Below the pieces are notes generated by a model. The model searched no databases. It was given only the letters and a program-made list of their open reading frames with translations, and was not told where the DNA came from. From NCBI GenBank assembly GCA_965204735.1, contig OZ242008.1, positions 320,001 through 384,000 on the forward strand: a stretch of DNA of 64,000 nucleotides, given 5' to 3'. The position numbers and the translations under genes are program-made. Below are positions 5,247-22,139 of this stretch, one piece after another. Position 1 is the stretch's first letter. Each line of letters starts with the position of its first letter. This DNA comes from Longimicrobiales bacterium (GTDB taxonomy: Bacteria; Gemmatimonadota; Gemmatimonadetes; Longimicrobiales; Gaopeijiaceae).

Positions 5247-6616
5247 TCGGTCCCGGTGCCGGCCCGAGTTCTGGCGCTCACTTCCGCCCGCACCATCGCT
5301 CGCAGCACCGGCTGGAACTTGATCTCGGTCTCCTCCCACTCCGACACCGGGTCCGAGCCCGCCACGATGCCGGCCCCCGCGAAGAGTCGCCACGAGCCGT
5401 CGCAGAGCACGGCCGACCGCAGCGCCGGAACGAAGATTCCCCGGCCGTCCGAGTCCAGCCATCCCACCGGGCCGGCGTACCAGCCGCGGTCGAAGACCTC
5501 GTTCTGGGTGAGGACGGCCAGCGCCACCTCCCTTGGAATCCCGCACACCGCCGGCGTCGGATGCAGGGACGCGACAATGGTCAGAAGGGACAGTTCGGCA
5601 GGCAGCTTCGCGACGATCTTCGTCTCCAGGTGCTGGATGCGTGCCAGCGCCAGAACATGCGGCTCCACGTCCCGTCCCACGCGGCAGCCCAGCGCTTCCA
5701 GCCGGGCCACCATGTCGCGCACCACAAAGTCGTGCTCGGCCCGATCCTTGACGCTGTTGAAGAGCCGGTCCGCCAAGTGGGCCGTCTCCACCGAGTTCGC
5801 CCCGACCCCCGCGCTTCCGGCCACCGCAGTCGCCCGAAAGACGCCGTCGGCCGCCGTCGCCAGCGTCTCCGGTGCCGCTCCCACCATTGCCCGGCCCGCC
5901 TCGGGCTCGTACAGGAACACATGGCTCCCTCGGTTCTCGCGCCAGAGGGCCGCGACCAGCTCGTCAGGCTCGACTCGCCCGTCGGGCTTCACCTCCAAGG
6001 TGCGGGCCAGGACCACCTTCTCGGCGTCCCCCGCCTCGATCTCCGCCAGCGCGTTCCCGACCATCCGTTCCCAGGCGCTCCTGCCCATCCCGGTGATCTG
6101 ACCGGCGCGCCGAAAGCCCGCCGGCGCCACGTAGCTGGGTCGACCCGCGCCTTTGGCTCGTTCCGACGCCAGCGCCGCCGTCCACGCTCGGCAGCTCTCT
6201 TCCGCTGCACCGGTGTTCGGACCACGGACCGTCAGCCAGCAGGCGCCGATCTCCGGCCGGTACTCGATCTCCGCCTTCGGCAAGTGAAAGCGCGCGCTCC
6301 CGAAGGGGGACCAAGCAGCGTCGGCGGTGTCCTCGCCCGAAAACGCAAATCCGCCGAACGCCCGGACCACCCCCGACCCCTCGCACCCCCCGAAGGCTGT
6401 TCGGACCCTTTCCTCGACGGTGGCGAAGCGGCACGCCGACGGAGCTTGCTCGCTCCCGCCCGTCGGCAACGAGACGTCCTCGGCCACGCCCGCGTGAGCC
6501 ACCCATCGCTCGCCGCTGGCCCAGAACCCTCGCGGCCCTCCTCTGGCGACCCGCAAGAACGATGCCGGCGACACGCCACCAATTCGGCGCCGATGCTGAT
6601 GCCGCGCTGCGCTCAT
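5243..6616 (-). CDS. menF: isochorismate synthase
   Basis: EKVVLAR, GAAPETL, EHDFVV, IQHLET, LHPTPAVCG, DRGWYAGPVGW and AGAGIVAGSDP..EW.E motifs; heads the men operon. Confidence 0.92.
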   Translation of the reverse strand: MSAARHQHRRRIGGVSPASFLRVARGGPRGFWASGERWVAHAGVAEDVSLPTGGSEQAPSACRFATVEERVRTAFGGCEGSGVVRAFGGFAFSGEDTADAAWSPFGSARFHLPKAEIEYRPEIGACWLTVRGPNTGAAEESCRAWTAALASERAKGAGRPSYVAPAGFRRAGQITGMGRSAWERMVGNALAEIEAGDAEKVVLARTLEVKPDGRVEPDELVAALWRENRGSHVFLYEPEAGRAMVGAAPETLATAADGVFRATAVAGSAGVGANSVETAHLADRLFNSVKDRAEHDFVVRDMVARLEALGCRVGRDVEPHVLALARIQHLETKIVAKLPAELSLLTIVASLHPTPAVCGIPREVALAVLTQNEVFDRGWYAGPVGWLDSDGRGIFVPALRSAVLCDGSWRLFAGAGIVAGSDPVSEWEETEIKFQPVLRAMVRAEVSARTRAGTGTE

Positions 6617-6663
6617 CTATGCTTGCGGCGCTCGCTGCCGACCCCGCCGTTGCGTCGGTTCTC

Positions 6664-6825
6664 TCACTTGCGTGCGGCCAGCGCGTCAATCGATCCACAT
6701 GCATGGATCCTCGGCATCCGACCGGCGAGTCCGGCGTTCTCGAAGAATTTGCTGAACCCCTTGCGACAATCGGCCTTCAGCTGCTTCGAGTCCCCGCCTC
6801 CCTCGACGTAGATCCGCACGCTCAC
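6664..6825 (-). pseudogene. truncated DUF4276-like (TOPRIM-like) partner of the AAA ATPase, about 53 aa
   Basis: GTG overlaps the ATPase stop. VSVRIYVEGGGDSKQLKADCRKGFSKFFENAGLAGRMPRIHACGS resembles the N-terminus of DUF4276 proteins, then stops after IDALAARK. Confidence 0.7.
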
Positions 6826-7997
6826 CAGCGATTGCCCCCAAGGTCTCCAGAGCTCCAAAGCTCTCCCAGCCGATAGCGGTCCAACCAGTGATCCAGGTCG
6901 TCCCGGCGCAGGCGATTCAGAGTTGTTTGACCGTCGTGCTTCTCGCAGACCACAATGCTCTCGGGCGTCTCGGTGAGCGCGTCCACAATCACGTCGGAGT
7001 GAGTCGTGACGATCAGTTGGCACCTCTCCGACGCTTCGCGCAACAACCTGGCCATTCCGGGAAGAATGTCGGGGTGCAGCCCAAGTTCCGGTTCTTCCAG
7101 ACAGACCAGTGCCGGTGGAGACGGATCGCAAAGCAGGGCCAGCAAGTACAGGTACCGCAATGTACCGTCGGAGAGGCGCGTCGCAGGGACAGTGGCATTG
7201 TCCTCCTGCAGATACACCTGAACGTTCCCGTATCCCACGTCGATGTGCAGGTCCCGCAAGCCGTCGTAGAGATCCCGCAAGCGGCTGATCAGCCGTTGCT
7301 TGACGTCGTAGTCGATCGCAAGTCGGTTCAGCACCAAGCCAAGGTTGCTGCCGTCCTCTTGCAGGACGTTGCTGCAAAGATCGTTCTTCTGGGGAAGACG
7401 TATCGGGCACTGTCTCCCGAAGACCCAGTTGCGATACAAGTGTATGTTCTTGAGAGATTCCCCGACGTGGGTGACTTCCGGGTAGCGACGCCTGTCCTTG
7501 ATTGCAGAAAGCATCGACTCGCCAGACCCCACACCGTATTCTTCGATGCCAACGCCTGCCTCCCGCTGGCCGGCCGAGTCGTGCAAGTAAACCTGGTCCG
7601 CGGTTCTCGAGCCGAAGATCTTCTCCCTGTTGCCGTCGAGACCTAGTTCTTCGATCTGCACGTCCATGCCGCGGGGGGCCCCCAACATCTCCACGGAGTA
7701 GAACAGGTCTTGCCCAGCAGTCGTGCTCGTCGGGCTATCAGCGGGTCCCTCGAGAACTACGTCTACCCGAACGAGATAGGGTTCGCCCTTCCACGCCCAC
7801 TCCCCGGAATCGCCTCGCTTCCTTGTTTCGGTCCCGAGGTCGGTCGGCAGCGCCTTCAGCAACCCCATCACTTCGATCAAGTTGGACTTGCCCGAGGCGT
7901 TGGGACCGATCAGCACGGTCAGGGGCTCCATCTCCAGCTCCATGCCGTTCGGACCGAACGACAGGATGTTCTCGAGCCTTATCCTGCGCATCAACAT
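6822..7997 (-). CDS. ABC-type AAA ATPase (AAA_15/AAA_21-like)
   Basis: Walker A GPNASGKSN, signature LSDGT, Walker B/D-loop VCLEEPELGLHP and H-loop VTTHS; no TM segments. Confidence 0.9.
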   Translation of the reverse strand: MLMRRIRLENILSFGPNGMELEMEPLTVLIGPNASGKSNLIEVMGLLKALPTDLGTETRKRGDSGEWAWKGEPYLVRVDVVLEGPADSPTSTTAGQDLFYSVEMLGAPRGMDVQIEELGLDGNREKIFGSRTADQVYLHDSAGQREAGVGIEEYGVGSGESMLSAIKDRRRYPEVTHVGESLKNIHLYRNWVFGRQCPIRLPQKNDLCSNVLQEDGSNLGLVLNRLAIDYDVKQRLISRLRDLYDGLRDLHIDVGYGNVQVYLQEDNATVPATRLSDGTLRYLYLLALLCDPSPPALVCLEEPELGLHPDILPGMARLLREASERCQLIVTTHSDVIVDALTETPESIVVCEKHDGQTTLNRLRRDDLDHWLDRYRLGELWSSGDLGGNRW

Positions 7998-8007
7998 GAG
8001 CGCCTTC

Positions 8008-9609
8008 TCAACGCTGGGCCCGGCCCGGCGCCCCGACGCCTGCCGGCTCGGCGACCCCCGTCATCCCGGCCACCGCCTCCCGCACGACCGTCAGCGCCAA
8101 GTCCGCGTGCTCCCGACGAGTGCGGAACGACAGCACGGCGAAGCGGAGCCAGATGCGGCCGTTCAAGGTCGTGGACGAAATGAAGATCCGGCCATCGGCG
8201 TGAATGCGCTGGACCAGCCGCTCGTTGGCCGCGTCGACCGCTTCCGCGTCGGCATCGGCGTCGCACCCGGGCGGGACGTGTCGAAAGAGGACCACCGACA
8301 GGTCGGGCTCGGGTCCGACCTCGATATGGGGCAATCGCTGAACGGCCTCGTGTAGGTAGCGGGCCAGCCAGTACTTCTCGCTGATGCACGCGCGGAACGG
8401 GGCCACGCCGAAGAGCTGCAGCGGAAGCCACAGGCGCATCGCTCGGAAGTGGCGCGTGAGCTCCGGCGAGTGGTCGGCGGGCGAGGGCGCGTCTTCCTCG
8501 GTCCAGGTGTCCCGCAGGTACGGCGCGGCGCGCATGTGGGCGTTGCGCAGCGCTTCCCGGTCTCGGACCACCAACGCCCCGGAGCCGTAGGGAAGGAAGA
8601 GTCCCTTGTGGGGGTCCAGGACGACGGAGTCGGCCCGATGAAGCTCCCGAAGCGGCGCCGGCGCCTCGGGCGAGAGCAGGAAGAAGCCGCCGTAGGCTGC
8701 GTCCACGTGGTGCCAGAGCCCGTGCGCTTCGGCCACGTCGGCAATCTCGCCGACCGGATCGACGGCGCCCGTGTCGGTGGTGCCTGCCGACGCCACGACC
8801 ATGAAAGGCCGCAGCCCCGCTTCCAGGTCCGCCTCGATCCGGGCAGCCAAGTCGGGGGCCGACATGCGGTAGCGGTCGTCCATCTCCACGTGGTGCACCG
8901 GGCTCTCGCGCATCCCGGCGATGACCAGGGCCTTGCCGACGCAGTGGTGCACGTGGCGGGTCGAGTACACGACCGCCCGGGGCACGTCGGCGGCTCGGAC
9001 GCCCAGGGCCTCCCGGGCGGTCACGACGGCCGTCAGGTTGGCGATCGAGCCCCCGCTGGCAAGGTCGCCGCCGGCCCCCTCTCCGTAGCCCACCAGGTCG
9101 GCCAGCCACCGGATCAGGAGGGCGTTCATGCGGACGGCCCCCGGCGACGTGAAGTAGATGCCTGCGAAGCGGTTGGTCACCGCGGCCAGGTAGTCGGCCA
9201 GCGACGACGGGTAGAGGCCGCCCCCCGGGATGTAGCCCAGGTGTCCGGGCGCCGCCGGGTTGAGGGACGGCTGGTCCACGCACGCATCGATCGTCGCCAC
9301 GATCTCGTCGATGGGTCGGCCCGTCTCGGAGATCGGATGGTCCGTGATGCCCGCCCCGTCGTCCCCCGCCTGGTTGTACGTCTTGCACTCGGCGAGCCCG
9401 TCGAGGAATCGTTCGGCGTAGGCGACCACTTCGTCGCGAAGGCGCTTGCGTTGGGCCGGGCTGGGCTCCAGAGGCGCGGCTTGGCGGGCCAGGTCGTCGA
9501 TCCGGGCCGCCAGCTCCCGCAGCTTCGGCGACGCCGCCTCGTGCGGATCGAGCGCCGGCGACCCGAAGAGCCGTTTCCCGTTCGCCCTGCCGGACGCGGC
9601 CTCGTTCAC
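8008..9609 (-). CDS. group II PLP-dependent (aromatic) amino-acid decarboxylase
   Basis: SGGSIANL, AGTTDTGAVD, HVDAAYGG and DSVVLDPHKGLF (PLP lysine) motifs. Confidence 0.88.
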   Translation of the reverse strand: MNEAASGRANGKRLFGSPALDPHEAASPKLRELAARIDDLARQAAPLEPSPAQRKRLRDEVVAYAERFLDGLAECKTYNQAGDDGAGITDHPISETGRPIDEIVATIDACVDQPSLNPAAPGHLGYIPGGGLYPSSLADYLAAVTNRFAGIYFTSPGAVRMNALLIRWLADLVGYGEGAGGDLASGGSIANLTAVVTAREALGVRAADVPRAVVYSTRHVHHCVGKALVIAGMRESPVHHVEMDDRYRMSAPDLAARIEADLEAGLRPFMVVASAGTTDTGAVDPVGEIADVAEAHGLWHHVDAAYGGFFLLSPEAPAPLRELHRADSVVLDPHKGLFLPYGSGALVVRDREALRNAHMRAAPYLRDTWTEEDAPSPADHSPELTRHFRAMRLWLPLQLFGVAPFRACISEKYWLARYLHEAVQRLPHIEVGPEPDLSVVLFRHVPPGCDADADAEAVDAANERLVQRIHADGRIFISSTTLNGRIWLRFAVLSFRTRREHADLALTVVREAVAGMTGVAEPAGVGAPGRAQR

Positions 9610-9619
9610 CGTTCCGTGA

Positions 9620-10645
9620 TCAGGCGCCGGCGGTCCGGAGCCGGAGCCGTCGGTACTCCCGGAAGGAGATGAGCTTGCGGCGCCCTTCGTCCCAGAGGGC
9701 CAGGTTGAGCGTCTTGAGGCCGTCGCGGATCGTCATCTTGGGCGCGGCCCACAGCTCCGGGTTCTCGTCGTGACAGCGTTGCAGCCGGTAGTTGGGGATG
9801 CGCGCGCTCAAGTGGTGCACGTGGTGCAGGCCGATGTTGGCGGTGAGCCACTGCAGCGGCTTCGGCAACTTGAGGAACGACGACCCGTGGAGACCGGCGT
9901 CGAAGTAGTTCCACTCTTCGTGCCAGTGCCAGTAGGCGTCGTCGAACTGGTGCTGAACGTAGAAGAGCCAGACTCCCATGGCGCAGGCGCACAGCGTGAC
10001 GGGAACCTGCACCAGCAGGAAGCGATCCAGCCCGATCGTCGCCCACGCCAGCGCGACGATGCCGGCCAAGGCGGCGTTGGTCCACCACACCGAGCGCCAC
10101 TCCCGCTTCCATGCCCGGGGCACGTCCCAGGGAAAGCGGTGCTTGACCAGGAAGTGGAACGCCGCGCCGGGCCCGAAGATGACGAAGGGGTTCCGATAGA
10201 TGCGGTACCCCAGGCGCATCCACGGCGACATCGCCTCGTACTCCTTGACGGTCTTGGTGCTGATGTCGCCGAAGCCCCGCATGTCCAGGTCGCCCGAGTG
10301 GGCGTGATGGATCGCGTGGGTCTTCCGCCAGTAGTGGTAGGGCGTCAGGGCCAGCACGCCGATGACGAAGCCCACGGCGTTCGCCACCTTCTGGGACCGA
10401 AAATAGGAGCCGTGGCCGCAGTCGTGCTGGATCATGAAGAGCCGCATGATGAAGGCGGCGGTCGGGACGGCGAGGAGCAGCGTCAGCCAGTAGCCGACGG
10501 CCAAGCTGAAGTAGGTTGCGGTCCAGCAGGCGGCGAAGAGCCCCGCGCTCGTGGCCAGCTGCCCGGCGCTCCGCGCGTTGTCGGGGCCAAGGTAGGGCGC
10601 AAGGACCTTCTTCCAGCGGGCGACTTGTTCGCGGTCGTGGTTCAT
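9620..10645 (-). CDS. membrane fatty-acid desaturase (Des-like)
   Basis: Three His boxes HDCGH, HAIHH and HHVHH, plus FYVQHQF and TM segments. Confidence 0.92.
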   Translation of the reverse strand: MNHDREQVARWKKVLAPYLGPDNARSAGQLATSAGLFAACWTATYFSLAVGYWLTLLLAVPTAAFIMRLFMIQHDCGHGSYFRSQKVANAVGFVIGVLALTPYHYWRKTHAIHHAHSGDLDMRGFGDISTKTVKEYEAMSPWMRLGYRIYRNPFVIFGPGAAFHFLVKHRFPWDVPRAWKREWRSVWWTNAALAGIVALAWATIGLDRFLLVQVPVTLCACAMGVWLFYVQHQFDDAYWHWHEEWNYFDAGLHGSSFLKLPKPLQWLTANIGLHHVHHLSARIPNYRLQRCHDENPELWAAPKMTIRDGLKTLNLALWDEGRRKLISFREYRRLRLRTAGA

Positions 10646-10723
10646 CCGTTCCCGTTTTTGGACTGGGGGATCAAGAGCGGAGCCGAAGGGGCGACGGCGT
10701 CGCGGAATCTAATCCCGGCCGAG

Positions 10724-11932
10724 CTACCAGCGGAACCAGAAGCGCTGCCACAGCGCGCGCTCGCGCTCCCGGAAGACGTCCTTGCTCTCGCCCGTCAGGT
10801 CCACGGGCTGGACCCAGAACCGGCACCCGTCCTCTCCGAAGGCGTCGGTGCGGTCCCGGCCCATGCGATAGATGGGCTCGGTCAGGCGCAGGAACTCATC
10901 TGGGGAGTACTCTCGGTCGTCTTCAATCTCGCGGTCGGCGTAGAGCGCGGCCGGATCGTTCGCATGTCTCTCGTGGACGATGCCATAAAGCCGCATTCCA
11001 CGGTTGGTCAGCTCCACACGGAAAATGTGCTGGGGATCTCCTGCGGTCATCCAGCAGGGAGGCGGGTCCACGCCCCTGCCTTGCGTCAAGCGTTCGATCT
11101 CGGATTCCCGGTACTCGGCTCGACCCACCGCGCGGGCCCGAGCCTGTTCGGAGCGCTGAAGTCGGGCGCGGAGCGAGTCCGGGGGGCTGCCAGCGGCCAG
11201 GCGCTCCACCTTCCTTCGTCGCGCGTCGCTGGACCGCACGGCCTCTCGGGCGTCTTCCAGCTCTCGGGACAACAGATCGGCACGAGCTGCCTGCGCGACA
11301 ATCGAGTCGGCGTCCGCAGGCGTCAGCGAGTCGGCGTCCGCAGGCGTGAAGCTCCGGTACCGGGCCACTTGGGAGCGGATGCTTTCGACGACCCTTTCAG
11401 CGTCGGCCATGCGCGCTTCGACGGAGTCCCGTCGGGCCTCCTGCCCGCCCAGCCGCTCTTGGGCCCAGCGCAAGGAGTCCCGAAGCACTCCGAGCTGATC
11501 GGCCTGCTCCGCTGTCCGGCGCACCGATTCTTGGGCATCGGCCCCTGCGATGTTGCGCAACCGGGCCTCCGCCGAGTCGGCGCGAGTTCTTGTCTGGGCC
11601 AGCTCCCGTTTCGCACTGTCCGCTCGGGCTTCGGCGGACGTCAGTGCCTCCCGCAACCGGCGGGCCTCTTCGTACCAAGCGTCGGTGTTGGTCCACGACG
11701 TATCTCCGCCCAGCAGCAGCGCATCCGCGATCTCCAGGTCCACCTGACGGTCTTCCAGCTCATCCTGGGTGTCTTCCAGCTCACCTACGACCCTGTTGTT
11801 TTCATTTCCAAGATTAAGCAAGAGCGCGGCACACGCCAGAAGCAAGATGAAGACGACGACGCTGAAGGTCTCGGCCAGGGTCATGCCCAGAGCCAGCCCC
11901 TTGCGGTAGTGAGTCTTCTCGGCGGGAAGCAT
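10724..11932 (-). CDS. single-TM coiled-coil protein, MotB/ZorB-like N-terminus with Glu; unknown Cys-containing C-terminal domain
   Basis: GMTLAETFSVVVFILLLACAALLL TM helix, long charged helical region, and C-terminal PPCW...CRFWV. Purine-rich RBS; lies 21 bp after the MotA-like gene. Confidence 0.6.
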   Translation of the reverse strand: MLPAEKTHYRKGLALGMTLAETFSVVVFILLLACAALLLNLGNENNRVVGELEDTQDELEDRQVDLEIADALLLGGDTSWTNTDAWYEEARRLREALTSAEARADSAKRELAQTRTRADSAEARLRNIAGADAQESVRRTAEQADQLGVLRDSLRWAQERLGGQEARRDSVEARMADAERVVESIRSQVARYRSFTPADADSLTPADADSIVAQAARADLLSRELEDAREAVRSSDARRRKVERLAAGSPPDSLRARLQRSEQARARAVGRAEYRESEIERLTQGRGVDPPPCWMTAGDPQHIFRVELTNRGMRLYGIVHERHANDPAALYADREIEDDREYSPDEFLRLTEPIYRMGRDRTDAFGEDGCRFWVQPVDLTGESKDVFRERERALWQRFWFRW

Positions 11933-11953
11933 AGAGCTTTCCCTACTCCCGTC

Positions 11954-13441
11954 TCACCGCAACCACGGGAAGAACCGCTTGAGGCGACCGGATCGGCGGC
12001 GGGTCCCTGTGTGCTTCCCCAGCTTGTCGATCACTTCCTTGCTCTGCAGCGCGATGTCGTACAACTCCTTTTGGGTCTCCGTCAGCTGGTCGGTGAGACC
12101 GTTCAGGTCGGCCGCTGCCTTGCTCGCTTCGGTCGCAGCCGTCGAGATCTGTTCTGCAGCTTCGCTTCCAGGGCCGGCAAGCTGGCTCCGCATTCCCTTG
12201 GCAGCCCGAGACACGGTCACCAAGTCGCCTTGCGCCTGCACCGCCGCGTTCTTCATTCCCTCCAGGCCCTTGCTGGCAGCGGTAGCGTGTCCGCCAACCT
12301 CGCCAAAGCCCGAAGTCGCTTCCGCCATGCGCGCGCCAGCTTCGACGACGTTCGACGCCAAGGTCGAAACGGCCGCCGCCGCCGCCTTGTCGAGCCTCGC
12401 CTCGAGAGCGGCGACCTTACTCGAAGAAGACTTCACGGAACCCAGCGAACGAGTCGCTGCCTTGGCCCCGTCGGCGCAGGCGTCGGCCATCTTCTTGAAC
12501 TCATCACGAACTCCGACGACTTCGGTCCCGAGAGTCGACACTTGGGCCGTCATTCCGGCCATTTCCCGAACCGCCAGATCCCCGGCCTTCAGTAGTCCCG
12601 TCTTGGTTTCTTCGATCGCGGCCTCCACGGTCGGCAGCACCTTCACAGCGCCATCCAGGGCGGCCCCGAAGCCCCGCAGGGACTTGTCCGCGCCTGCCAG
12701 GCGCTCCTCCAACCCGGCGACGGATTCGCTGCCGCGCCTCACCGCGCCTCGGAAGTCGTCGACCGAACTGGAGAACGCCTCGGACATCTCCACAACTTTG
12801 GCGGAGTATGCGGCCAATGCCGCAGCGGTGGAGTCGGCCTTCTCGACGGAGCTGGCGATGCCGTCCGTCGTCTGCTGCAACGCGTCGGCCGAACGCTTCA
12901 GGTGACGCACCAAGTCTTCCATGTTCCGTCCACCTTGCACGACGATGCCCGTCATTTCGTTGATCGCATTTTCCAGGGCCTTTGTCGCGTGGGTCGTGAT
13001 GTCGCCGGGGGAGTCCTGCGTCATGGTGAAAAGAACCCGTCCCCCAAGGCCAACGATCGTCGTCACCAGAGCGATCCCGAAATCATGAATAATACGGTTA
13101 ATGGTGCCAACACTCAAGTCGCCGCCGCTCCGGCTGAGAACGATCAACGCCGACACGAGCGATGCAAACGTGAACAAGAGCCCCAGGTAGTAGAAGCCGT
13201 CGCCCTTGGTGTCCGGCGAGACGTGCTGGTTTCGGTAAGCCACCCAGCCGTGAGCCGCCATCAGCAAGCCAAGGAGGATGGCCGTCCACCATCCAGCCGT
13301 CCACCATCCAACCCAGTCGACGACCCTGGCCAGAATGATCAGGAGGAATCCGATCCCCAGCACAGCGCCCCACGCCTTCTGGTGCCCGCGTCGCGCCTTG
13401 TCCCCGTCGTCGAATCCGGGGCGTTCCGGGATCAGAGTCAT
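11954..13441 (-). CDS. MotA/TolQ/ExbB/ZorA-like membrane protein with long C-terminal coiled-coil tail
   Basis: TM motifs YYLGLLFTFASL and FGIALVTTIVGL, followed by about 350 aa of Ala/Ser-rich heptad-like tail. ATG 13441 overlaps the upstream stop (ATGA); alternative start 13459. Confidence 0.68.
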   Translation of the reverse strand: MTLIPERPGFDDGDKARRGHQKAWGAVLGIGFLLIILARVVDWVGWWTAGWWTAILLGLLMAAHGWVAYRNQHVSPDTKGDGFYYLGLLFTFASLVSALIVLSRSGGDLSVGTINRIIHDFGIALVTTIVGLGGRVLFTMTQDSPGDITTHATKALENAINEMTGIVVQGGRNMEDLVRHLKRSADALQQTTDGIASSVEKADSTAAALAAYSAKVVEMSEAFSSSVDDFRGAVRRGSESVAGLEERLAGADKSLRGFGAALDGAVKVLPTVEAAIEETKTGLLKAGDLAVREMAGMTAQVSTLGTEVVGVRDEFKKMADACADGAKAATRSLGSVKSSSSKVAALEARLDKAAAAAVSTLASNVVEAGARMAEATSGFGEVGGHATAASKGLEGMKNAAVQAQGDLVTVSRAAKGMRSQLAGPGSEAAEQISTAATEASKAAADLNGLTDQLTETQKELYDIALQSKEVIDKLGKHTGTRRRSGRLKRFFPWLR

Positions 13442-14280
13442 CCTTCTACTGGAACCCATCGAGGACGTGCTTCCGCCTCGGCCCCCGCGTCAAGGAAGTA
13501 GTCTTCCCAAAACGCCCTCAGCTGCCCCGCCTGCAAGCGGCCCGCGATGCCTCGGCGAGCCAGGAGAAAGACAGTCACTCGGACGCCGTTCAAGTCGACC
13601 CTCAAGGTTCGGTAGGCCGGGTTCTTGGCGAAAGTCCCGAAGTCGGGGGCTTCCCGAAAAAAGGACAGGTCGGGGGAGTTCTGCACCATGTCCGACACGA
13701 CGAGCACGTGACGTGGAATCGAGCCGCCGCGAGGCTGGAACGCATCGACGACGGCCGCCTGCACGGCCTCCACGATGGGGGAAACCGTGTCGCTGGGAAC
13801 GTCGAGCAGCGCGTTCAGGCGTTCCTCAACCGGATCGCGAAAGCCCTGGGAATACTCTCGCTCGAGAATCCTGCGATTGCTCCACAGGGCCTCGATGGTG
13901 CCGACGCTGTCGGGGTGCGGCGGCACGCAGACGCGCATCTCGGGTGCTGCTTCCCTGCGTCCGGCCCTCGCTACCGTGTACAACCTCATCTCGGTGCGTT
14001 CGGGCATCGAGCCCTCAATGACCTCGACCAATCTGGACGCCACCGATCGGCGCTGCACCGGGCTCAAGGAATCGGACGGATCAAGAAGCACTACGGCTTG
14101 GGCGGGCGGGGCGTCGTCTTGAAGGCAGTTGGCGGAATCGACTCGCACGGGTTCCCTCTGACCCCAGACAAACAACGCGATCACGACCAGCACGCTGACC
14201 ACGGCCAGCACAACCCAGCCCAGCACAATGTACCAGGGCTCCGTGCGCTTTGACGTCGAGCCGTAGACCGGGCGTCTCAT
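13438..14280 (-). CDS. membrane-anchored VWA-like (MIDAS) protein
   Basis: N-terminal TM (YIVLGWVVLAVVSVLVVIALFVW), VVLLDPSDS (DxSxS), VSPIVEAV and VLVVSDMVQNS. Start taken at MRRPVY, after a GAGGT RBS. Confidence 0.68.
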   Translation of the reverse strand: MRRPVYGSTSKRTEPWYIVLGWVVLAVVSVLVVIALFVWGQREPVRVDSANCLQDDAPPAQAVVLLDPSDSLSPVQRRSVASRLVEVIEGSMPERTEMRLYTVARAGRREAAPEMRVCVPPHPDSVGTIEALWSNRRILEREYSQGFRDPVEERLNALLDVPSDTVSPIVEAVQAAVVDAFQPRGGSIPRHVLVVSDMVQNSPDLSFFREAPDFGTFAKNPAYRTLRVDLNGVRVTVFLLARRGIAGRLQAGQLRAFWEDYFLDAGAEAEARPRWVPVEG

Positions 14281-14282
14281 CG

Positions 14283-15749
14283 TCACGCGACCTCGGTTCG
14301 GGCGATCTTCCGAACCTCGGTCTCGCATTCCTTGTAGCAGTCGTTCACCTTCTTGATCCGCAGGTCCTTGGCGGACTTGGCTTCCGCCGCACGGCGCTGC
14401 GCATCGGATCGAGAAGCGATGTCCGGCTTGGCCGGCACGTCCGGCAACTTCCAGTTCGCGGTCCACTCGGCCTTCCAAGACTCGGGTTCGGGCTCCGTTC
14501 TTGGAGCAGCCCGGTTCGCCGACCGGTACGACGCGATGGCGCTCCGGCAACTTTCCTGCAAGTACCCGGCGTCTTCACACAGCTCGGCATGGTGCTTGCA
14601 GAGCTGGTCGTATGCTTCGCTTGCCCGGTCGTAGTGAGCGACTGGGTCCGCCAGGCGCACATGACGTTCTTGTCGCTGGACAGCTTTCGCCCGGCGCCGA
14701 TCCAGGTCTTCCAGCAAGTCGCCCACGTAGCCGTCGAACTCCTCCTCCGCGCGCCGGCAGTTCTGCGCCGCCTGTCCGAACCCGGGATAAGGATCCTGCC
14801 TCCCCCACCACTTCCAGGCGGCCCCTCCGAACATCGCCAACCCAATCAACATGAGCACGTAGGACTGAAAGTCGTTGAGCACGAACCATTGGTTCCACAA
14901 CAGACAGATGGCCTCTCGTCCTGCAACGATCTCGTCGTTTCCTTGCCAGCAGGCCGCAGCGACGCTTGCCTCGGAGCCCGGCGTCGGGGTGGCAAGCGTC
15001 GATACGCTCCCGACGCTGTCCGGGGCAGGCGGATAGTCCACTGGAAGAGCTTCCCGGTAATGGGCAACGCCCAGGTTCAGCAGCACTCCCACGGCGACGA
15101 CTATCGCGAGGACGAGCACCCCCGATAGGCGCTGCGGATCGCTCATCCTCGCGGCCCGACCAAAGAGCCGCGCGATGAGCAAGCCGGTGGCCGACCCGAG
15201 GAAGACCACGTTGACCAAACTGATCATTACCGCATAGGTCATGCCGCCCAGGAGGCCGCCGCGGAGGTTCGCACCGAAGAAAAAGCCGTTGATCATCGTC
15301 TCGACGACGATCAAGGCCGTAAGGATTGCGAAGAACTTGAGAGCACTCTCGGGCATCTTCGGCGCTTCGCTGCCGTCCAAGCCGTACTTCTCCTCGATGA
15401 TTCGAAGCTTGTTCCGAGACTCCTCCACTCTTCCCCGATGTCCTTCCAGGTCCACCTTTGCCGTGAGAATCATGTTCTGCATGGCTTGACAGCTCTCTTC
15501 CGCCATCGCGTCGGCATCCTCTTCGGGCCTCTCCAGCTTCATGCGCCCTGTCAGCGTGTCCTGGTCATTGCGATAGACCTCCAGTCGATTCTGAAGAGCG
15601 CTGTGGCACCAGCTCGCGACTTCGGCTTCCACCGGATCGAGGCCCGGCTCGGTCGCGGGGGGCATGTTGAAGCTGCCGTTCTGCCGACCCTTCTTCAGGA
15701 GGTCGAACTTCTTGACGAGGAAGGCTGGGTCAGGGAGCTGGTTCGTCAT
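14283..15749 (-). CDS. 4-TM membrane protein with N- and C-terminal coiled coils, function unknown
   Basis: Start MTNQLPDP; four hydrophobic helices, a DPYPGFG motif after TM4, and charged helical termini. Confidence 0.7.
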   Translation of the reverse strand: MTNQLPDPAFLVKKFDLLKKGRQNGSFNMPPATEPGLDPVEAEVASWCHSALQNRLEVYRNDQDTLTGRMKLERPEEDADAMAEESCQAMQNMILTAKVDLEGHRGRVEESRNKLRIIEEKYGLDGSEAPKMPESALKFFAILTALIVVETMINGFFFGANLRGGLLGGMTYAVMISLVNVVFLGSATGLLIARLFGRAARMSDPQRLSGVLVLAIVVAVGVLLNLGVAHYREALPVDYPPAPDSVGSVSTLATPTPGSEASVAAACWQGNDEIVAGREAICLLWNQWFVLNDFQSYVLMLIGLAMFGGAAWKWWGRQDPYPGFGQAAQNCRRAEEEFDGYVGDLLEDLDRRRAKAVQRQERHVRLADPVAHYDRASEAYDQLCKHHAELCEDAGYLQESCRSAIASYRSANRAAPRTEPEPESWKAEWTANWKLPDVPAKPDIASRSDAQRRAAEAKSAKDLRIKKVNDCYKECETEVRKIARTEVA

Positions 15750-15978
15750 GGGCGGTACGGTTGGAGTTCCAGGGGACGACAATCTGTCTGTTCGCCGTCG
15801 CCGCCGCAAGCGGAACGCTCGCAAGCATCGCGGACACCTCCGCTTCCTGGCCGCCGCTCCTCGGAATTCTGCTGCACCCAGCCGCAGCGAAGTGGTCCGC
15901 CCGGGATGCGCCCCGCCCCCGGCCTGCGCCATCGACGAGGGGCTTTCGGGCGCCGTCGGTACTCCACGGGACCGGACG

Positions 15979-16602
15979 CTATGCATTCCGACGCTGAGCG
16001 ATTCCCCGGCGGTACTGGTTCCTGAGGTCGCCGATGAAGTTGCCGAGAGACGAATCGCTCTTGCCCGCCTTGTACAGGTCCATTTCCGCAACCAAGTCTT
16101 CCGCAATCTCCGGACCGCCGAGCGTGGACGGATTGCCCCCATCGGCCATGACCGCTCGAAGCTTGTTCTTGTAGTAGTGCCGCTCGCACTTGGCGGGCAG
16201 GTCCCCTGGACTGGCGCCGGCTACCTTCAAGACCGCTTTGGGGTCCGACAGATACCAACGCTCGACATGAGGATCGGGAGACGCCACGACCAAGCGGTAC
16301 CGATTCGATTCCCGGGTTGCGCCGGCCACCCGGTCCCTTGCAGCTGCGAACGGCGAGCAGTTGCCGTCGATGCCTACGACCAGAACTTCCGCGGTTGGAC
16401 CCTCCAGGTGCTCGGAGACACGCTGGTACAGCTTGAATTCCCTGACGGCGCGCGGATGTCCGCCGCGAGCCGACCGAACGCGCACCAACGTGCGAGCCCC
16501 CTCCTCGCGGCCGATGCGTGCGATCAACGCTCTCAGGAACGCTTCGTGCATCCTGTCTTCGCAGAAGAGGTCGACAACCATCCTCGTGTCGACGTCACTC
16601 AT
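15979..16602 (-). CDS. DUF4276-like / TOPRIM-like protein, partner of the AAA ATPase
   Basis: VVDLFCED (TOPRIM Glu), RGGH, VVGIDGN and VERWYLSDP motifs. Start overlaps the ATPase 3' end. Confidence 0.72.
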   Translation of the reverse strand: MSDVDTRMVVDLFCEDRMHEAFLRALIARIGREEGARTLVRVRSARGGHPRAVREFKLYQRVSEHLEGPTAEVLVVGIDGNCSPFAAARDRVAGATRESNRYRLVVASPDPHVERWYLSDPKAVLKVAGASPGDLPAKCERHYYKNKLRAVMADGGNPSTLGGPEIAEDLVAEMDLYKAGKSDSSLGNFIGDLRNQYRRGIAQRRNA

Positions 16603-17845
16603 CCAGAAGTCCGCGTAGAACCAAGCCCTGAAAGGACGCATGTTCGCCTGGCGATGCCAGTGCGGTGGCGATCTCCTCGTCCTTGAGAAGGGGGCCGCTT
16701 GCGTCGAAGGGATTGATCACCGTCCTGCCGTCGGACAAGCGGACGTTGAAGAGGCCGACGCCTTCGACCCCGTCTTCGTCTTGTATTCTCAGGACCGAGT
16801 CGACGAAAAGGGGCGAGTGGGTGGTGACGATCACTTGGCGCTGCTCGCGTTCCGACAAGGACATCAACAGGCGCGCGATCTCTTCCACGCGTCTTGGGTG
16901 GACGCCGTTCTCGGGCTCCTCCAACGCGACCAGGGATCCAGCCCACGGATTGACGGCGATTGCGCACAGGGCAAGCAGGCGCAATGTCCCTTCCGACAGA
17001 ACGCGAGAGGAATAGCTTGTGCCGTCTTGCCGTATCTGCATGTCCAAGATGCCTCGGCGTTCGTCCAGGCCGACTTCCAGCGCCTCCACGCCTGGCACGA
17101 TTGTTCGCATCACACGCCCAATCGCCTTGAACAGCCGAGGCTCCGTCGCCTTGAGCTTGTACAGGAATGCCGCCAAGTTGTGGCCGTGTGTGCCGATGTC
17201 CGTCACGTCCATGGGCGCTTCGTCCTGCCGCATGACGAGACGTGGCTCGAAGTGATACGTGCGCCAACCGGCGAACTCGTTCCGCACGTCGTCGAGCCAC
17301 GAGTATCCGTTGCCGCTGAGGCTGCGGTCGGAGAGGACCGAGTGGTTGAGGCCAAGACGTTCCTTGCGCGGACGCCCAGGCCCCGAGTTGCCCTTCCGAC
17401 GGATGTGGAGAACGCCGTCGGCGGCCTCGATCGCAGGAGTGCCCCAGACCGTGCCGGTTGGCCGGAGGCGCGCCAGATACTCGTCGGAAACGCTCAGCTC
17501 GCCCGACCGGAAGTTCATCGACGGCTGAACCCTGTACCGATAGTGCATGTCCTTCGTGCCGACGTCGGCTTCCAGGGCAAAGTGGGCCGAAGGTCGCCGT
17601 AGCAGCGCAGGCAGTCCTCCCTCTCCAAAGGAAAAGGCTTCCACGGAACGACCGCGAACGGGAAATGGTCCCCCCAAGGCATCCGGCAACGTGGGCGCCC
17701 TGGCGATCCACGAAAGGGCTTGAATCGCGTCCAGCAGGTTGCTCTTCCCCGTGGCGTTGGGCCCGAAGAGAACCGTGAAGCGAGGCAACTCGACCGTGAC
17801 GTCGGCCAGCGACTTGAAGCCTTGGACAGTCAGTCTGTTCAGCAA
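16595..17845 (-). CDS. ABC-type AAA ATPase (AAA_15/AAA_21-like)
   Basis: TTG start after AAGGAG; GFKSL, GPNATGKSN, LSEGT, ALEEPENGVHP and VTTHSP motifs. Confidence 0.9.
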   Translation of the reverse strand: MLNRLTVQGFKSLADVTVELPRFTVLFGPNATGKSNLLDAIQALSWIARAPTLPDALGGPFPVRGRSVEAFSFGEGGLPALLRRPSAHFALEADVGTKDMHYRYRVQPSMNFRSGELSVSDEYLARLRPTGTVWGTPAIEAADGVLHIRRKGNSGPGRPRKERLGLNHSVLSDRSLSGNGYSWLDDVRNEFAGWRTYHFEPRLVMRQDEAPMDVTDIGTHGHNLAAFLYKLKATEPRLFKAIGRVMRTIVPGVEALEVGLDERRGILDMQIRQDGTSYSSRVLSEGTLRLLALCAIAVNPWAGSLVALEEPENGVHPRRVEEIARLLMSLSEREQRQVIVTTHSPLFVDSVLRIQDEDGVEGVGLFNVRLSDGRTVINPFDASGPLLKDEEIATALASPGEHASFQGLVLRGLLDE

Positions 17846-17972
17846 CTGGCCTGCTCCTTGCTTGATCGGTCGCGGCACGCCTCGCGGGACGGCGGTCCCT
17901 TCGCTGCACGCGTCCCGAAACCGTAGGGCGCCCTGGCCGGCGCCGCCAGCCGGCGCGGACACTTCCGCTTCC

Positions 17973-19547
17973 TCACCGCCGCCCCTCCGGCGTCCCGTAG
18001 GGGTAGAGCGTTCCCAAGTCCACGTTCTCGTAGGGGAGCGCGTCCAGGAAGGTGGTGCCGACGAACGGCTCCGGGGCCTCCACGATCACGATCGTGGGCG
18101 CGAAGCCGGTCTCGTCGAAGCCGCGGCGGAAGTGGACCCGGGACTTGACCACGAACACGTCGTAGTCGGCGGGGTCGATCTCGCCCAGCCGGAAGGCGCC
18201 TGGGTAGAGGACCTGCGTGTAGGTCGGGGTCAGGAAGACCACGTTGCCGTCTCCGAAGGACACGGCCGCCACCGTGTCGTGCCCAAAGCCGTCGCCGAAG
18301 TGCTCCAGCACGCCCCGTACCCGGTAGGGGACGCCGCCCGACGGCGTGAAGCCGCCGACCTCCATGTCGAAGGAGTCGCCGGGACGGGCGCCCGAAGCCG
18401 ACAGCGCCTCCAGCGCGGCGGGCGAGGTGATCGTCCCGTACAGCACCTTGCCCAGCCCGACCTGCTGAAACGCCGCCAAGACGTGCGTCGCGTCGCCGGG
18501 CCGGTCGCTGTGGTCGCCGACGGCCACGGGAGTCTCGCCCGCCGCCACGGCCTCGGCCACGAGCCGCGCCGCCTCCGACGGCCCGGGGTAGCTGCCGACG
18601 GCGAACTCCTCGCGCACGCGCCAGATGAAGTCGTCCATGTCGTCGGCGATGCGGTCGGCCAGGGCCTGGTCGTCGTTGGTCATGACGTGGACGGTGGCGC
18701 CTACGTCGGGCACGTCGGACCACGGGTAGCCGTAGAAGACGTTCACGTAGGCGTCCGCTTCCCGCGCCTCCCAGCGCCGGGCTCGCTCCATGATGTCCAT
18801 CGACGGGGAGCGGCCCGTCCATTGGAGCACGGTGGCGGTGACGACTCCAGGCTTGCGGGTGGCGGTCGTGGAGACGTACTCGCCACGGGCGGCCAGGCGG
18901 AGGGCTCGGGCGGCGCGCTCGCCCTGGATGTAGGCGTCGTAGTGCGGGTAGCGCTTGGTGACGAAGGCGAAGTCGGCGTGGCGGAGGAACTCGCCGTCCT
19001 CGTTGCCGTGGAGGTCGAAGGTGGCGGCGATGGGGACGCCGGGGCCGACCAGCTCGCGGAAGCGCCGAGCGATCTCGGCCTCGGGCCGGGGAACGTCCCG
19101 CACGGCCATTGCGCCGTGCAGGGAAAGGTAGACGGCGTTCACGGGCAGCTGGTCCTCCAGCTCCGCCAGCATCGCTTCCAGGAAGTGGTCGAAGGTCTCC
19201 CGCGTGTTCCAGCTTCGGGACGAGCCGCCGAAGACTCCGTTGGGCGAGGCGAGGGGGACCAGCTCGACGTCGCCGAACTCGCGAGCGCGCTGGGCGAAGC
19301 CGCGCAAGTAGGCGCCGGACGACAGGAGCGCGTCGCCGGAAAGGGGCTCGCTTTGCCGAAGCCAGTCCTCGACCTCCGTGTCCCCGCCGGGGCAGAACGT
19401 GCAGGTCTCGTGCTGGTACTTGGCGACGGCGAAGCGGAGGGGCGCGCGCTCGGCCGGCTCGGCGCAGGCGAGCAGCGCCAGGCACGACAGCGCGACGGGG
19501 GCCAAGCGGGGGTCCGCCCCGGCAGGGCGAGGGCAAGTTCTGGTCAT
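17973..19547 (-). CDS. M81 (MlrC-like) metallopeptidase, lipoprotein signal
   Basis: HETCTF, LSLHGAM, FDLHGN, YPHYD, DRPGD and VVKSRVHFRRGF motifs; LALLAC lipobox. Confidence 0.88.
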   Translation of the reverse strand: MTRTCPRPAGADPRLAPVALSCLALLACAEPAERAPLRFAVAKYQHETCTFCPGGDTEVEDWLRQSEPLSGDALLSSGAYLRGFAQRAREFGDVELVPLASPNGVFGGSSRSWNTRETFDHFLEAMLAELEDQLPVNAVYLSLHGAMAVRDVPRPEAEIARRFRELVGPGVPIAATFDLHGNEDGEFLRHADFAFVTKRYPHYDAYIQGERAARALRLAARGEYVSTTATRKPGVVTATVLQWTGRSPSMDIMERARRWEAREADAYVNVFYGYPWSDVPDVGATVHVMTNDDQALADRIADDMDDFIWRVREEFAVGSYPGPSEAARLVAEAVAAGETPVAVGDHSDRPGDATHVLAAFQQVGLGKVLYGTITSPAALEALSASGARPGDSFDMEVGGFTPSGGVPYRVRGVLEHFGDGFGHDTVAAVSFGDGNVVFLTPTYTQVLYPGAFRLGEIDPADYDVFVVKSRVHFRRGFDETGFAPTIVIVEAPEPFVGTTFLDALPYENVDLGTLYPYGTPEGRR

Positions 19548-19549: not shown

Positions 19550-19933
19550 TCACGACTCCATGGCTGCTGCGAGTCCTCGATCGAACGTCATGATCCGCGA
19601 CACGCCTCGGCGTCGGCAGCACGCCAAGTGGATCAGGTCGCGGGCCGACAGGCAGGGGTTGGCTTCCACAAGCGCCCGCGCGAGCCGGACGTCTTCGGCT
19701 TCCAGCGTCCATACTACGCTCGCGCACTCCTCCGCAAGGTCCAGCGCGGCGTCCAGCGTCGAGTACCGTTCCGTCCGAACGTAGGCGTGCACGAGCTCCA
19801 GGAGCGCCGCCGAGGAAGTGGCGAGCGGCAGCCGCTGGCCGACGGCCTCGACCAGAAGCGCCCGAGCCCTGGTCCGGAGCGGGTGGGGACGCCCGACGGC
19901 GTACATGAAGACGTTCGCGTCGACGAAGGTCAC
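19550..19933 (-). CDS. vapC: VapC-family PIN-domain toxin
   Basis: FVDANVFMYAVG, LLEL, ARDLIHLA and MTFDRGL carry the PIN acidic residues; 127 aa. Confidence 0.9.
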   Translation of the reverse strand: MTFVDANVFMYAVGRPHPLRTRARALLVEAVGQRLPLATSSAALLELVHAYVRTERYSTLDAALDLAEECASVVWTLEAEDVRLARALVEANPCLSARDLIHLACCRRRGVSRIMTFDRGLAAAMES

Positions 19934-19934
19934 G

Positions 19935-20207
19935 TCACTCCCCGCCGGGGTTCCCGAAGCCCTCGATCACCCGCTTGTGCTCCTCCCACTCGGGCTCGGC
20001 GTCCTCTCCTTCCGTGGCGTCGCACTCGGCGAAGAAGCGCTGCAGATCGGATGCCGTGCGGAGGCGGTGCCGGGCGCGGGAAGCGACGTACTTCTCCTCG
20101 GCCGCCTCTCTGATCCAGGCGCCCAGGGACTTTTCTTCCCGAGCCGCCTGCTCCCGCCAGCGCGCCTTGTCGCCGGGGTCCGCCAGGACTTGGATTCTGG
20201 CGCTCAT
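19935..20207 (-). CDS. antitoxin (RHH/CopG-like)
   Basis: 90 aa gene 1 bp upstream of vapC; strand-helix-helix pattern RIQVL...SLGAWIREAA and an acidic tail. Confidence 0.78.
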   Translation of the reverse strand: MSARIQVLADPGDKARWREQAAREEKSLGAWIREAAEEKYVASRARHRLRTASDLQRFFAECDATEGEDAEPEWEEHKRVIEGFGNPGGE

Positions 20208-20279: not shown

Positions 20280-22139
20280 TGTCGTACCAATTTAGAAATG
20301 TCCGGTCTTACCAAGATAGAAATGTCCTCTTTCGGGCGATGTTCGGCGGGAGTCGAACTCGTGCCCGGGAGAGGAGCGAATGGAGTTGAGCTTGAAGGAG
20401 CGGGACCGGATCTCGGTGTTGAGGCAGGTGAGCGAAGGCGTGCTGGCGGCGGCCGACGGCGCGGCGCGCTTCGGGGTGACGGAGCGTCACTTCCGGCGCG
20501 TGCGCCGCCGGTTCGAGGCGGCGGGCGACGAGGTGGTCGTGCACGGGCTCCGGGGTCGGAGGTCGAACCGGTCGCTGCCGTCGGAGACGCGGGAGCAGGT
20601 GCTGGTCATGGCCAGGGACCCCGACTACGCCGACTTCGGCGCCACGTTTCTGGCGGAGCATGTCGAGCGGGAGCTGGGCGTGCGCGTCAGCGCGGAGACG
20701 CTGCGGGCATGGCGGAAGGGCGCGGGCTTGTGGCAGCGCAAGCGCAAGCGGGCGAAGCACCGGCGCCGACGTCCGCGTCGCGCCGCGCGGGGCGAGCTGC
20801 TCCAGTGGGACAGCTCGGTTCACGCCTGGCTTGAAGACCGGGGGCCGCCCGACCTCGTGCTGATCGCGCTGCACGACGACGCGACGAGCGGGTTCATGCA
20901 CGGTCGCTTCGTCGAGCGCGACACGGGCGCCGCGAATCGGCGAGCGATCGTCGAGTGCCTCGAACGCCACGGCCGTCCGAGGGCGGTGTACGTGGACCAC
21001 GCGGGCCACTTCGGGCAGCGCCTCGGCCCGGAGGGCAAGCGGACCCGGACGATCATCGGCACGGCGCTGGAGAAGCTGGGCGTCGAGGTGGTCCTGGCGA
21101 ACTCGCCGCAGGCGAAGGGCCGGGTCGAGCGGACGTTCGGCACGGCGCAGGACCGGCTGGTCAAAGAGATGCGCTTGGCGCGAGTCACCACGCTCGAGGC
21201 GGCGAACCGCTACTTGGAGGAGCGGTGGGTTCCGTTCTGGAACGAACGCTTCACGGTGGCGCCGGCCGATCCCCTCGACGCCCATCGCCCGCTGCCTCAG
21301 GACATCGATCTGGAAGCCCTCTTCGCCGAGACGGACACGCGGGTCGTGGCCCGCGACTTCACCGTGCGCTTCGAGAACCGCTTCTGGCAGGTCACGGCCC
21401 GCGACGCCGAGGCGGCCGGCGTCGCGCCGGGCTCCCCCGTCGTCGTCGAACGGCGTCTCTCGGGCGAGCTGCGCTTCCGGCATCGCGGCTGCTACCTGAC
21501 GCCCAAGGCCTTGGGGGCGGTCCGGTCGGCGACGCCCAAGCCGGCGCCGGCGCCCGCGACGGCCAAGCCCAGGCCCAAGCCGCCGAAGCCGGGAAGGGAT
21601 CACCCGTGGCGCAAGCACTTCAGCGCCAGCGTGGCCCAGGCCGTGGCCAAGCGGGAACACCGCGCCGCCCACTCCAACGGGACCGGTCCCGAGCGGTGCA
21701 GGACCTCGTCCTGAGCCTGCAGGCGGGGACGGCAGCTCGCACTCCCCTTCCCGCAAAGGTCGGACGCGACCGCAGTGTCGGCATCCGTGCCTCCGAGGCT
21801 TGCCGGCGCTGCGCAGGTCGCTCGGCGCACCACGACCGTCCGAGCTGGCAGGCTCAGTGCGAACTGCGAGCCATCGGGGCAGCAGTGTCCGGACCCGTCC
21901 GCGTTGGCGTCCACCCGGCCAGAGCTTGGCCACGGCGACGACCTCGACTCGCCCGGCCGCCACTGGCCTTGAAGCGCCTGGAACAGGGCGCCCGGCGCCG
22001 TCCAGCCCAGGCTTGCTGGATCCGCGTGTCCTGCGCCCGACACCTGGCCCCCGGCCTCAGGAAGAACCCACCGTCCACACCATCAGGGGGGACATTTCTA
22101 CTTTGGCCAACTACCGGACATTTCTACTTTGGCTTGACA
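20280..22139 (+). mobile_element. complete insertion sequence, IS1202 family (ISNCY), 1860 bp
   Basis: TGT...ACA termini; imperfect inverted repeats, each containing two TAGAAATGTCC motifs; flanking 16-bp direct repeats; DDE transposase inside. Confidence 0.9.
20380..21714 (+). CDS. DDE transposase (IS1202/ISNCY type)
   Basis: N-terminal HTH, HGLRGRRSN, LLQWDSS, LHDDAT, VYVDHAGHF and SPQAKGRVER motifs; C-terminal DHPWR. Confidence 0.95.
   Translation: MELSLKERDRISVLRQVSEGVLAAADGAARFGVTERHFRRVRRRFEAAGDEVVVHGLRGRRSNRSLPSETREQVLVMARDPDYADFGATFLAEHVERELGVRVSAETLRAWRKGAGLWQRKRKRAKHRRRRPRRAARGELLQWDSSVHAWLEDRGPPDLVLIALHDDATSGFMHGRFVERDTGAANRRAIVECLERHGRPRAVYVDHAGHFGQRLGPEGKRTRTIIGTALEKLGVEVVLANSPQAKGRVERTFGTAQDRLVKEMRLARVTTLEAANRYLEERWVPFWNERFTVAPADPLDAHRPLPQDIDLEALFAETDTRVVARDFTVRFENRFWQVTARDAEAAGVAPGSPVVVERRLSGELRFRHRGCYLTPKALGAVRSATPKPAPAPATAKPRPKPPKPGRDHPWRKHFSASVAQAVAKREHRAAHSNGTGPERCRTSS

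Follow-up and report, generated by a model that had tools for sequence, protein, structure and literature searches.

The window analysed here, a stretch of 64,000 nucleotides from a Longimicrobiales genome (contig OZ242008.1, forward-strand positions 320,001 to 384,000), carries at positions 10724-15749 a four-gene operon of membrane proteins, in which genes 3 and 4 very probably encode a divergent ion motor of the 5:2 type, with a MotA/ExbB/ZorA-like channel subunit and a MotB/ExbD/ZorB-like partner. The four-gene cassette is real, widespread and undescribed in the literature searched. Flagella, nutrient import, the upkeep of the envelope, gliding and Zorya defence are all powered by motors of this type. 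A MotA/ZorA-like channel with a Glu-type MotB-like partner had been proposed in an initial annotation of the window made from its sequence alone, and three results support it: the invariant Gly and Thr residues of the gene-3 pore, the invariant Glu21 of gene 4, and the weakest matches of a gene-3 profile, which proved to be MotA_ExbB proteins in 15 of 15 cases.

The four open reading frames (ORFs) are co-oriented on the minus strand and closely packed, with 2 bp between genes 1 and 2, an ATGA overlap between genes 2 and 3, and 21 bp between genes 3 and 4. The gene count and spacings given in the initial annotation, together with YYLGLLFT, FGIALVTTIVGL, TLAETF, DxSxS and a tail of ~350 amino acids (aa), are all present in the translations. 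The operon is single-copy in this genome (G000). A 16.7-kb contig of a related strain spans window positions 5200-18948 with an identical arrangement; therefore, the operon is not an assembly artefact. With gene 2 as query, 28 loci were found in genomes titled Longimicrobiales or Gemmatimonadota, and all 28 keep the four genes in the same order, which places the arrangement beyond chance. The G+C content of the operon is 64% versus 69% for the genome, among the lowest 7% of 5-kb windows, and its G+C at third codon positions (0.77-0.78) ranks within the bottom 16% of a crude gene set. All four proteins stay below the curated cut-offs of Pfam and NCBIfam, and PADLOC and PHROGs give no specific match. 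Profile matches to ZorA, JetC, SMC and MCE are coiled-coil matches within the tail or the stalk and were set aside as identities. The view that no named system has this composition therefore holds for these four databases and for the literature searched, which contains no description of the cassette; supplements and most subscription papers lie outside that coverage, so tables of defence predictions could list the genes.

The predicted channel subunit and its stalked partner

Gene 3 has four predicted membrane helices, with YYLGLLFT at residues 84-91 and FGIALVTTIVGL at 121-132, and then a helical tail with a basic/aromatic tip ending RRRSGRLKRFFPWLR. An AlphaFold2 model of residues 1-180 (71 sequences, pLDDT, the predicted local distance difference test, 87) places helices at 11-42, 49-70, 76-104 and 111-140, followed by the start of the tail. 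Y84, Y85, G87, T91, F121, A124 and G131 are invariant in 71 of 71 aligned homologues, and T128 is kept in 70. At the sequence level, the strongest link of gene 3 to the motor family is the overlap of its weak matches with MotA_ExbB proteins. The 16 weakest six-frame matches of the gene-3 profile all fall on the two pore helices, and each of the 15 that were retrieved is a MotA_ExbB (PF01618) protein above the Pfam cut-off. The pore motifs line up with LGFLGT and ALxTT in PF01618 proteins, and a profile search of the PDB aligns them weakly with type I ZorA (8vvn, E 0.27). An hhalign comparison of gene 3 with 16 MotA_ExbB pieces (85.7%) is circular, the pieces having been chosen by the same profile, and was not counted.

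Comparisons of the predicted structure suggest the same family. In Foldseek, TolQ ranks first and MotA, PomA, ExbB, TolQ or ZorA make up 20 of the 42 listed rows. VIA-align matches type II ZorA (8vvi_F) with Z 9.5 and a root-mean-square deviation (rmsd) of 2.2 over 97 of 99 residues. These model-based results are individually weak yet agree with the motif evidence. An Atlas search returned unnamed clusters and, as a lead only, two clusters with PF01618 on 13% of their members (score 0.91). The tail extends ~350 aa beyond the fourth helix, as the initial annotation stated in likening it to that of ZorA, and is likely cytoplasmic. Across 101 loci its length ranges from 85 to 498 aa (median 274). 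PADLOC ZorA matches to gene 3 are confined to this tail (best E 6.5e-6), beside coiled-coil matches to DruC and JetC, and the NCBIfam ZorA model gives 10 bits for gene 3 against a cut-off of 500. Short gene-3-like proteins with PYFLGFLLT, at L184:6882-7757 (G103) and L185:6813-7712 (G357), have no other operon gene detected nearby and possibly represent an intermediate subfamily.

Gene 4 consists of one transmembrane (TM) segment with TLAETF at residues 18-23, a helical stalk of ~250 aa and a C-terminal head. Among 60 gene-4 TM segments with a mean identity of 38%, Glu21 is the sole invariant column (60/60), and it is likely the protonation site, replacing the canonical Asp. The heads, by contrast, differ among homologues. 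By motif, 56 loci were classed into 30 with the Cys-Cys head of the window, 22 with an OmpA-like head bearing GHTD, and four with a ZorB-like head. Pfam OmpA (PF00691) matches seven of the eight plasmid gene-4 proteins scanned, the Paracoccus heads match ZorB2 of PADLOC at E 1.5e-27 and 5.4e-25, and the head of locus L142 shares 39% identity with that of a true ZorB. The head of the window was modelled with pLDDT 90. Compared with 48,161 chains by VIA, it matches TolR 5by4 (Z 5.7, rmsd 4.1 over 86 residues) and 2jwk (Z 5.4, rmsd 2.8, 72/74), with ExbD at Z 3.5. The TolR match of the model, modest in Z, would give independent support by landing on the other known class of motor heads. For this head, the Foldseek rows were ribosomal and binding proteins alone, all of them weak (best E 0.06). 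The VIA list holds no OmpA-like chain, which does not by itself exclude an OmpA-like fold; the protein has no ZorB or OmpA profile match, and hhalign to OmpA-type heads gives 0.3%. A degenerate OmpA domain was rejected because such profile similarity is lacking. The ZorAB-like partner of the initial annotation thus stands as to the single TM segment with Glu, but the window head appears to differ from the OmpA-type domain that anchors ZorB to the wall and weakly resembles TolR/ExbD.

Several results count against the motor assignment. PF01618 does not match gene 3 at E≤1, nor is there a match to the ZorA membrane domain. None of the Foldseek rows reaches E≤0.001, and the 8vvi_F match ranks eleventh, behind designed and unrelated helical bundles, with a Z below the helical background of ~13. 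Both TolR scores, the only two chains at Z≥5, lie under the guide value of Z 8. Weak fold scores of this kind would also be expected if genes 3 and 4 were of motor ancestry and no longer rotated, serving as a gated ion channel or scaffold that, for example, depolarises the cell on damage. Glu in place of Asp, Tyr-Tyr before the pore helix where canonical proteins have Ala-Pro, and a loop of only five residues at the place of the MotA cytoplasmic domain point in the same direction. However, the pore threonines, the acidic residue and the anchoring head on its stalk are kept family-wide, and type II ZorA is equally minimal. We consider such a loss of rotation very unlikely and retain a 5:2 motor as the most likely reading.

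Two further observations concern gene 4 and its 3' side. The stalk contains a short tandem duplication at window ~11305-11352 (TPADADS twice), where related-strain contigs omit letters. In other loci, a small fifth ORF of 67-90 aa lies directly after gene 4, often overlapping its stop codon; it begins helical and finishes in a basic/aromatic or hydrophobic stretch (L080:10179-10421, L087:10240-10482, L092, L094, L096, L098, L099, L107, L113, L129, L136 and L153). By eye, it appears where the gene-3 tail has no basic/aromatic tip, as though the tip had a gene of its own; the window has no such ORF.

The gene 1 and gene 2 pair

Gene 2 has a TM segment at residues 18-36, and a domain begins ~15 aa past it, with D67-P-S-D-S71. 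D67, S/T69, S167, D197, C52 and C118 are invariant in 50 of 50 homologues. The DxSxS motif, initially read as a metal ion-dependent adhesion site (MIDAS), is present in the window, but its fifth position is S/T in only 15 of the 50 aligned homologues, so that the family motif is D-x-[S/T]-D. From sequence features, the domain is likely periplasmic and von Willebrand factor A (VWA)-like, with a degenerate MIDAS that keeps four of the five positions we take to be its ligands. VWA_3 matches one of 50 family members (E 4.9e-5). Profile searches of the PDB gave nothing significant for genes 1, 2 and 4, and no VWA match for gene 2.

Gene 1 belongs to no family and has TM segments at ~139-157, 174-192, 211-229 and 289-314, flanked by helical N- and C-terminal arms, according to hydropathy and charge. 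In or beside these helices and arms, E150, N154, N225, R232, Y408 and N412 are each kept in 44 of 44 homologues. The charge bias and the Cys pairs suggest that both long arms are cytoplasmic.

A point against treating all four proteins as one machine is that the gene 1 and gene 2 pair occurs without gene 3 or 4 nearby in 12 of 16 regions retrieved, from 11 genomes; these regions are mainly weaker gene-2 matches. Therefore, genes 1 and 2 need not be motor subunits and form a module of their own. The two extra membrane subunits of the initial annotation are both present, but their membership of the complex is weakened by the same finding. One motor-less pair (L160:6140-11665, G080:C1) faces a complete Zorya II system (ZorA2 E 3.7e-157, ZorB2 2e-88, ZorE2 6.6e-106). 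One stands beside a type II restriction-modification pair, and two have partial MADS-gene matches. At L183 (G212), L156 (G061) and L006, the operon or the pair is broken or frameshifted, the frame breaks of L006 lying in genes 1 and 3.

Table 1. Coordinates of the operon genes and their main features in the window
Feature	Position	Strand	Description
Gene 1	14283..15749	-	488 aa, four-TM protein, no family
Gene 2	13438..14280	-	280 aa, one N-terminal TM and a likely periplasmic VWA-like domain
Gene 3	11954..13441	-	495 aa, MotA/ExbB/TolQ/ZorA-like channel subunit
Gene 3 pore-lining helix pair (predicted), residues 76-140	13022..13216	-	G87, T91, A124, T128, G131
Gene 3 helical tail, residues 145-495	11957..13009	-	poorly conserved, likely cytoplasmic
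Gene 4	10724..11932	-	402 aa, MotB/ExbD/ZorB-like partner
Gene 4 Glu21 codon	11870..11872	-	invariant in 60/60
Gene 4 head, residues ~290-402	10727..11065	-	alpha/beta with Cys pair; TolR periplasmic domains are the best structural matches

Distribution, thermonucleases and surroundings

Within the phylum, a strong gene-3 match was found in 18 of 401 sampled genomes, 17 of them among the 71 genomes of the bacterium's own family. On plasmids, all from Alphaproteobacteria, 24 records match a gene-3 homologue, 22 match gene 1 and 22 match gene 2; nine of the 24 plasmid loci were read, and the four genes are present in all nine. A metagenome search confirmed at least 551 stretches. The best 80 were examined together with two IMG/VR viral contigs. 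Of these 82 loci, 56 have a contig long enough to score gene 2, which is there in 55; the corresponding figures are 40 of 42 for gene 1 and 61 of 63 for gene 4. An operon gene is missing despite an adequate contig at L084, L105, L127 and L139. The four-gene composition and synteny anticipated by the initial annotation are thus conserved across the Longimicrobiales loci, the plasmid loci read and nearly all scorable metagenome loci. The gene-3 membrane-domain profile gathers 2,437 clusters at 50% identity (E≤1e-10). Between the window and locus L001, where the operon is flanked by the same peptidase and desaturase genes and the ATPases described below are lacking, the operon proteins are 36-57% identical, whereas the neighbouring genes are 73-92% identical, a pattern that suggests rapid change or in-place replacement.

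When flanking ORFs were clustered over all loci, thermonucleases (Pfam SNase) formed the sole cluster recurring across distant lineages. They lie beside or within the operon at 17 loci in 11 groups below 50% gene-3 identity. Among non-Longimicrobiales loci, this corresponds to 11 of the 21 that extend 900 bp to either side of the operon and 14 of the 46 that do so on one side. The placement varies between upstream and downstream, either strand, and fusion. At L142 (Pfam E 7.8e-7) and at L135 (E 2.4e-11, by our own profile only), gene 4 ends in a fused SNase domain, a position that places the domain on the exported side. Free thermonucleases start, by eye, with hydrophobic leaders, and the recurring enzyme is likely exported, judging from these sequences. 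Of the eight SNase matches on the nine plasmids (4.69 Mb), the top five map no more than 0.5 kb from the operon, versus ~0.05 expected by a rough count, although the five plasmids concerned represent one lineage. A separate observation is a likely exported protein near the operon at L094:241-771, L096:2502-3086, L099:5342-5926 and L106:512-1081, all loci without SNase. It bears two motifs that we read as His/Cys-rich (N-terminal) and nuclease-like (C-terminal), has no Pfam match at 1e-5, and shares its N-terminal motif with the SNase of L107.

In the window, the operon is flanked by pairs of an AAA_21 ATPase and a small partner at 15979-17962 and 6664-7997, on the minus strand, which resemble the candidate system HEC-01 of PADLOC (E 2.4e-53 and 1.3e-136). 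The partner ORF of the second pair is only 64 aa long and looks truncated; related-strain contigs have ~447 extra letters at 6691-6695. Farther away lie a PIN-domain gene with a 90-aa gene upstream, likely a toxin-antitoxin pair (19550-20207), an insertion-sequence transposase (20380-21714) of which the genome has about ten near-identical full copies, three similar GDSL/SGNH-like genes of ~375-387 aa around moeA (29816-35718), and a gene for a 1630-aa DUF4011/helicase/REase_MTES_1575/DUF3320 protein, a possible stand-alone defence gene (39233-44125).

Function and comparison with known systems

The chances for and against an envelope-level defence role of the operon against incoming DNA appear evenly balanced. 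In its favour we count the thermonuclease link, the patchy spread, the occurrence on plasmids and IMG/VR contigs, the fast divergence and the ZorA-like tail. The whole reading, in which the ion motor and an attached membrane sensor module formed by genes 1 and 2 jointly guard the envelope, falls just short of an even chance. By analogy with known families, five gene-3 subunits would ring two gene-4 helices, and Glu21 would bind the ion inside the Thr91/Thr128 ring. The motor would stay shut until the stalked head is caught, by peptidoglycan for OmpA heads or by a protein partner for the TolR-like head. The VWA domain of gene 2 may sense or grip an intruding structure, for instance a phage ejection conduit. 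Motor activity would then bring an effector to bear, possibly the exported nuclease where present. Since this genome has no such nuclease, the effector here would be gene 1, with its polar intramembrane residues and two long cytoplasmic arms, or an ion leak through the motor. More tentatively, and with doubts prevailing, the family might be a separate widespread branch of 5:2 motors that uses Glu, exchanges TolR-, OmpA- and ZorB-like heads, brings along a VWA sensor and a four-TM partner, and places a nuclease beyond the inner membrane. It would then be a Zorya turned inside out, with invading DNA destroyed in the periplasm.

Several findings weigh against envelope defence. This genome (98% complete) has no SNase match, and neither do the 28 Longimicrobiales loci, 10 of the 21 scorable other loci or four of the nine plasmids. 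Many neighbours of the operon at plasmid and metagenome loci are housekeeping genes. L001, L026 and L170 share the same chromosomal neighbourhood, as would be expected of a vertically inherited gene set. The flanking ATPase genes have no homologue at the loci of 34 relatives, and AAA_21 has 37 matches in this genome; the defence-island context of the initial annotation is therefore local only.

Housekeeping surroundings at many loci, together with the exported nuclease as the only recurrent neighbour and a TolR/ExbD-like head in 30 of the 56 loci classed, would also suit a motor that powers DNA scavenging or uptake. ExbBD energises nutrient import, and in the same manner the motor could energise the import of extracellular or periplasmic DNA cut by the nuclease. 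We regard this as unlikely: the flanks show no recurrent TonB-like protein, outer-membrane receptor or competence gene (single cases at L080 and L062), the long cytoplasmic tail and the ZorB-type heads fit Zorya better, and the nuclease is absent from this genome.

Alternatively, much as in AglRQS, SiiAB and the vWA-motor operons proposed in the available text of PMC12204202, the motor may pass force on to the envelope, be it for adhesion, surface movement, secretion or remodelling; gene 2 would then act as a VWA force transducer or adhesin. A VWA-like TM protein does stand beside the motor pair, the head is TolR-like, the chromosomal position is stable in several genera, and this lineage has no nuclease. 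According to the same text, such force transducers, which go with TolQ-like motors, have either an SHLS/His helix with a long linker and a TPR gene, or an Asp-bearing vWA helix that replaces the B subunit. The operon resembles them in encoding a membrane-tethered periplasmic vWA protein beside motor genes, but its B subunit is a separate gene, the four-TM gene 1 is always present, and the gene-2 TM segment has no His/SHLS motif, acidic residue or long linker. In addition, recurrent adhesin, secretion or motility genes are missing from the flanks, and the nuclease fusions are left unexplained. Force transduction is therefore rather unlikely in our view, and we keep envelope defence as the working interpretation.

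Whichever function applies, the family comprises ~2,400 clusters at 50% identity that Pfam, NCBIfam, PADLOC and PHROGs miss. Glu at the ion site, both B-subunit head classes on one motor and a head-fused nuclease are without description in the literature searched, and the family would link the Ton/Tol and Mot/Zor branches. The operon is within reach of experiment in culturable named strains, for example Rhizobium johnstonii 3841 (RL_RS31080-31100).

Among known motors, TolQR and ExbBD (PF01618; TolR 5by4 and 2jwk; ExbD 2pfu) share the pore motifs, and TolR is the best structural match of the gene-4 head. In contrast, gene 3 stays below the Pfam cut-off, the long tail and stalk are additions, and no TolA/TonB or tol-pal genes accompany the operon. 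Four other PF01618 genes of this genome are above that cut-off. MotAB and PomAB, as presented in the available part of PMC12505986, are alike in their four-helix A subunit and in the OmpA-like head of 26 of the 56 gene-4 homologues classed, the ZorB-like heads counted in; the operon has a tail instead, and no torque-generating cytoplasmic domain or flagellar context. No such family was found in the accessible portions of that MotAB survey and of a 2026 review (PMC13434031).

According to the accessible text of PMC11890865 and PMC11946911, the Asp of the Zorya B subunit is packed against a ring of Ser/Thr residues, and defence requires both this Asp and the tail. Among known systems, the operon comes closest to ZorAB of type II (PDB 8vvi; also 8vvn and 8qyd; types I-III as defined in the available text of PMC8565338). 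Both have, in the operon by prediction, a minimal helical channel subunit with a long cytoplasmic tail, a Ser/Thr ring and a downstream partner gene with one TM segment and an acidic residue, and some gene-4 homologues carry a ZorB-type head (39% identity; PADLOC E 1.5e-27). The operon differs in its Glu for Asp, one extra N-terminal helix, the ~250-aa stalk and the TolR-like head of the window. It also has two extra membrane genes and no ZorC/D/E/F/G, and the nuclease associated with it in other lineages is likely exported, or fused outside the membrane, and not cytosolic. The lack of a recognisable ZorC, ZorD or ZorE, stated initially, is borne out: PADLOC, run on genes 1 and 2 and on three genes of the flanking ATPase pairs, gives no match to ZorC+D, ZorE or ZorF+G. 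The ZorE profile matches nothing but a 72-position piece at a distance of 160 kb, and the search for ZorC (PF15611) was blank but had no positive control. On sequence criteria the operon is not a Zorya member, as profile, head and effectors fail. SNIPE (10.1101/2025.11.03.685801) and Kiwa (PMC13434031), which have no motor, are likened here by description and not by sequence; as far as the available texts describe them, and with the SNIPE nuclease being cytoplasmic, they provide a precedent for membrane-located defence that acts on DNA during injection.

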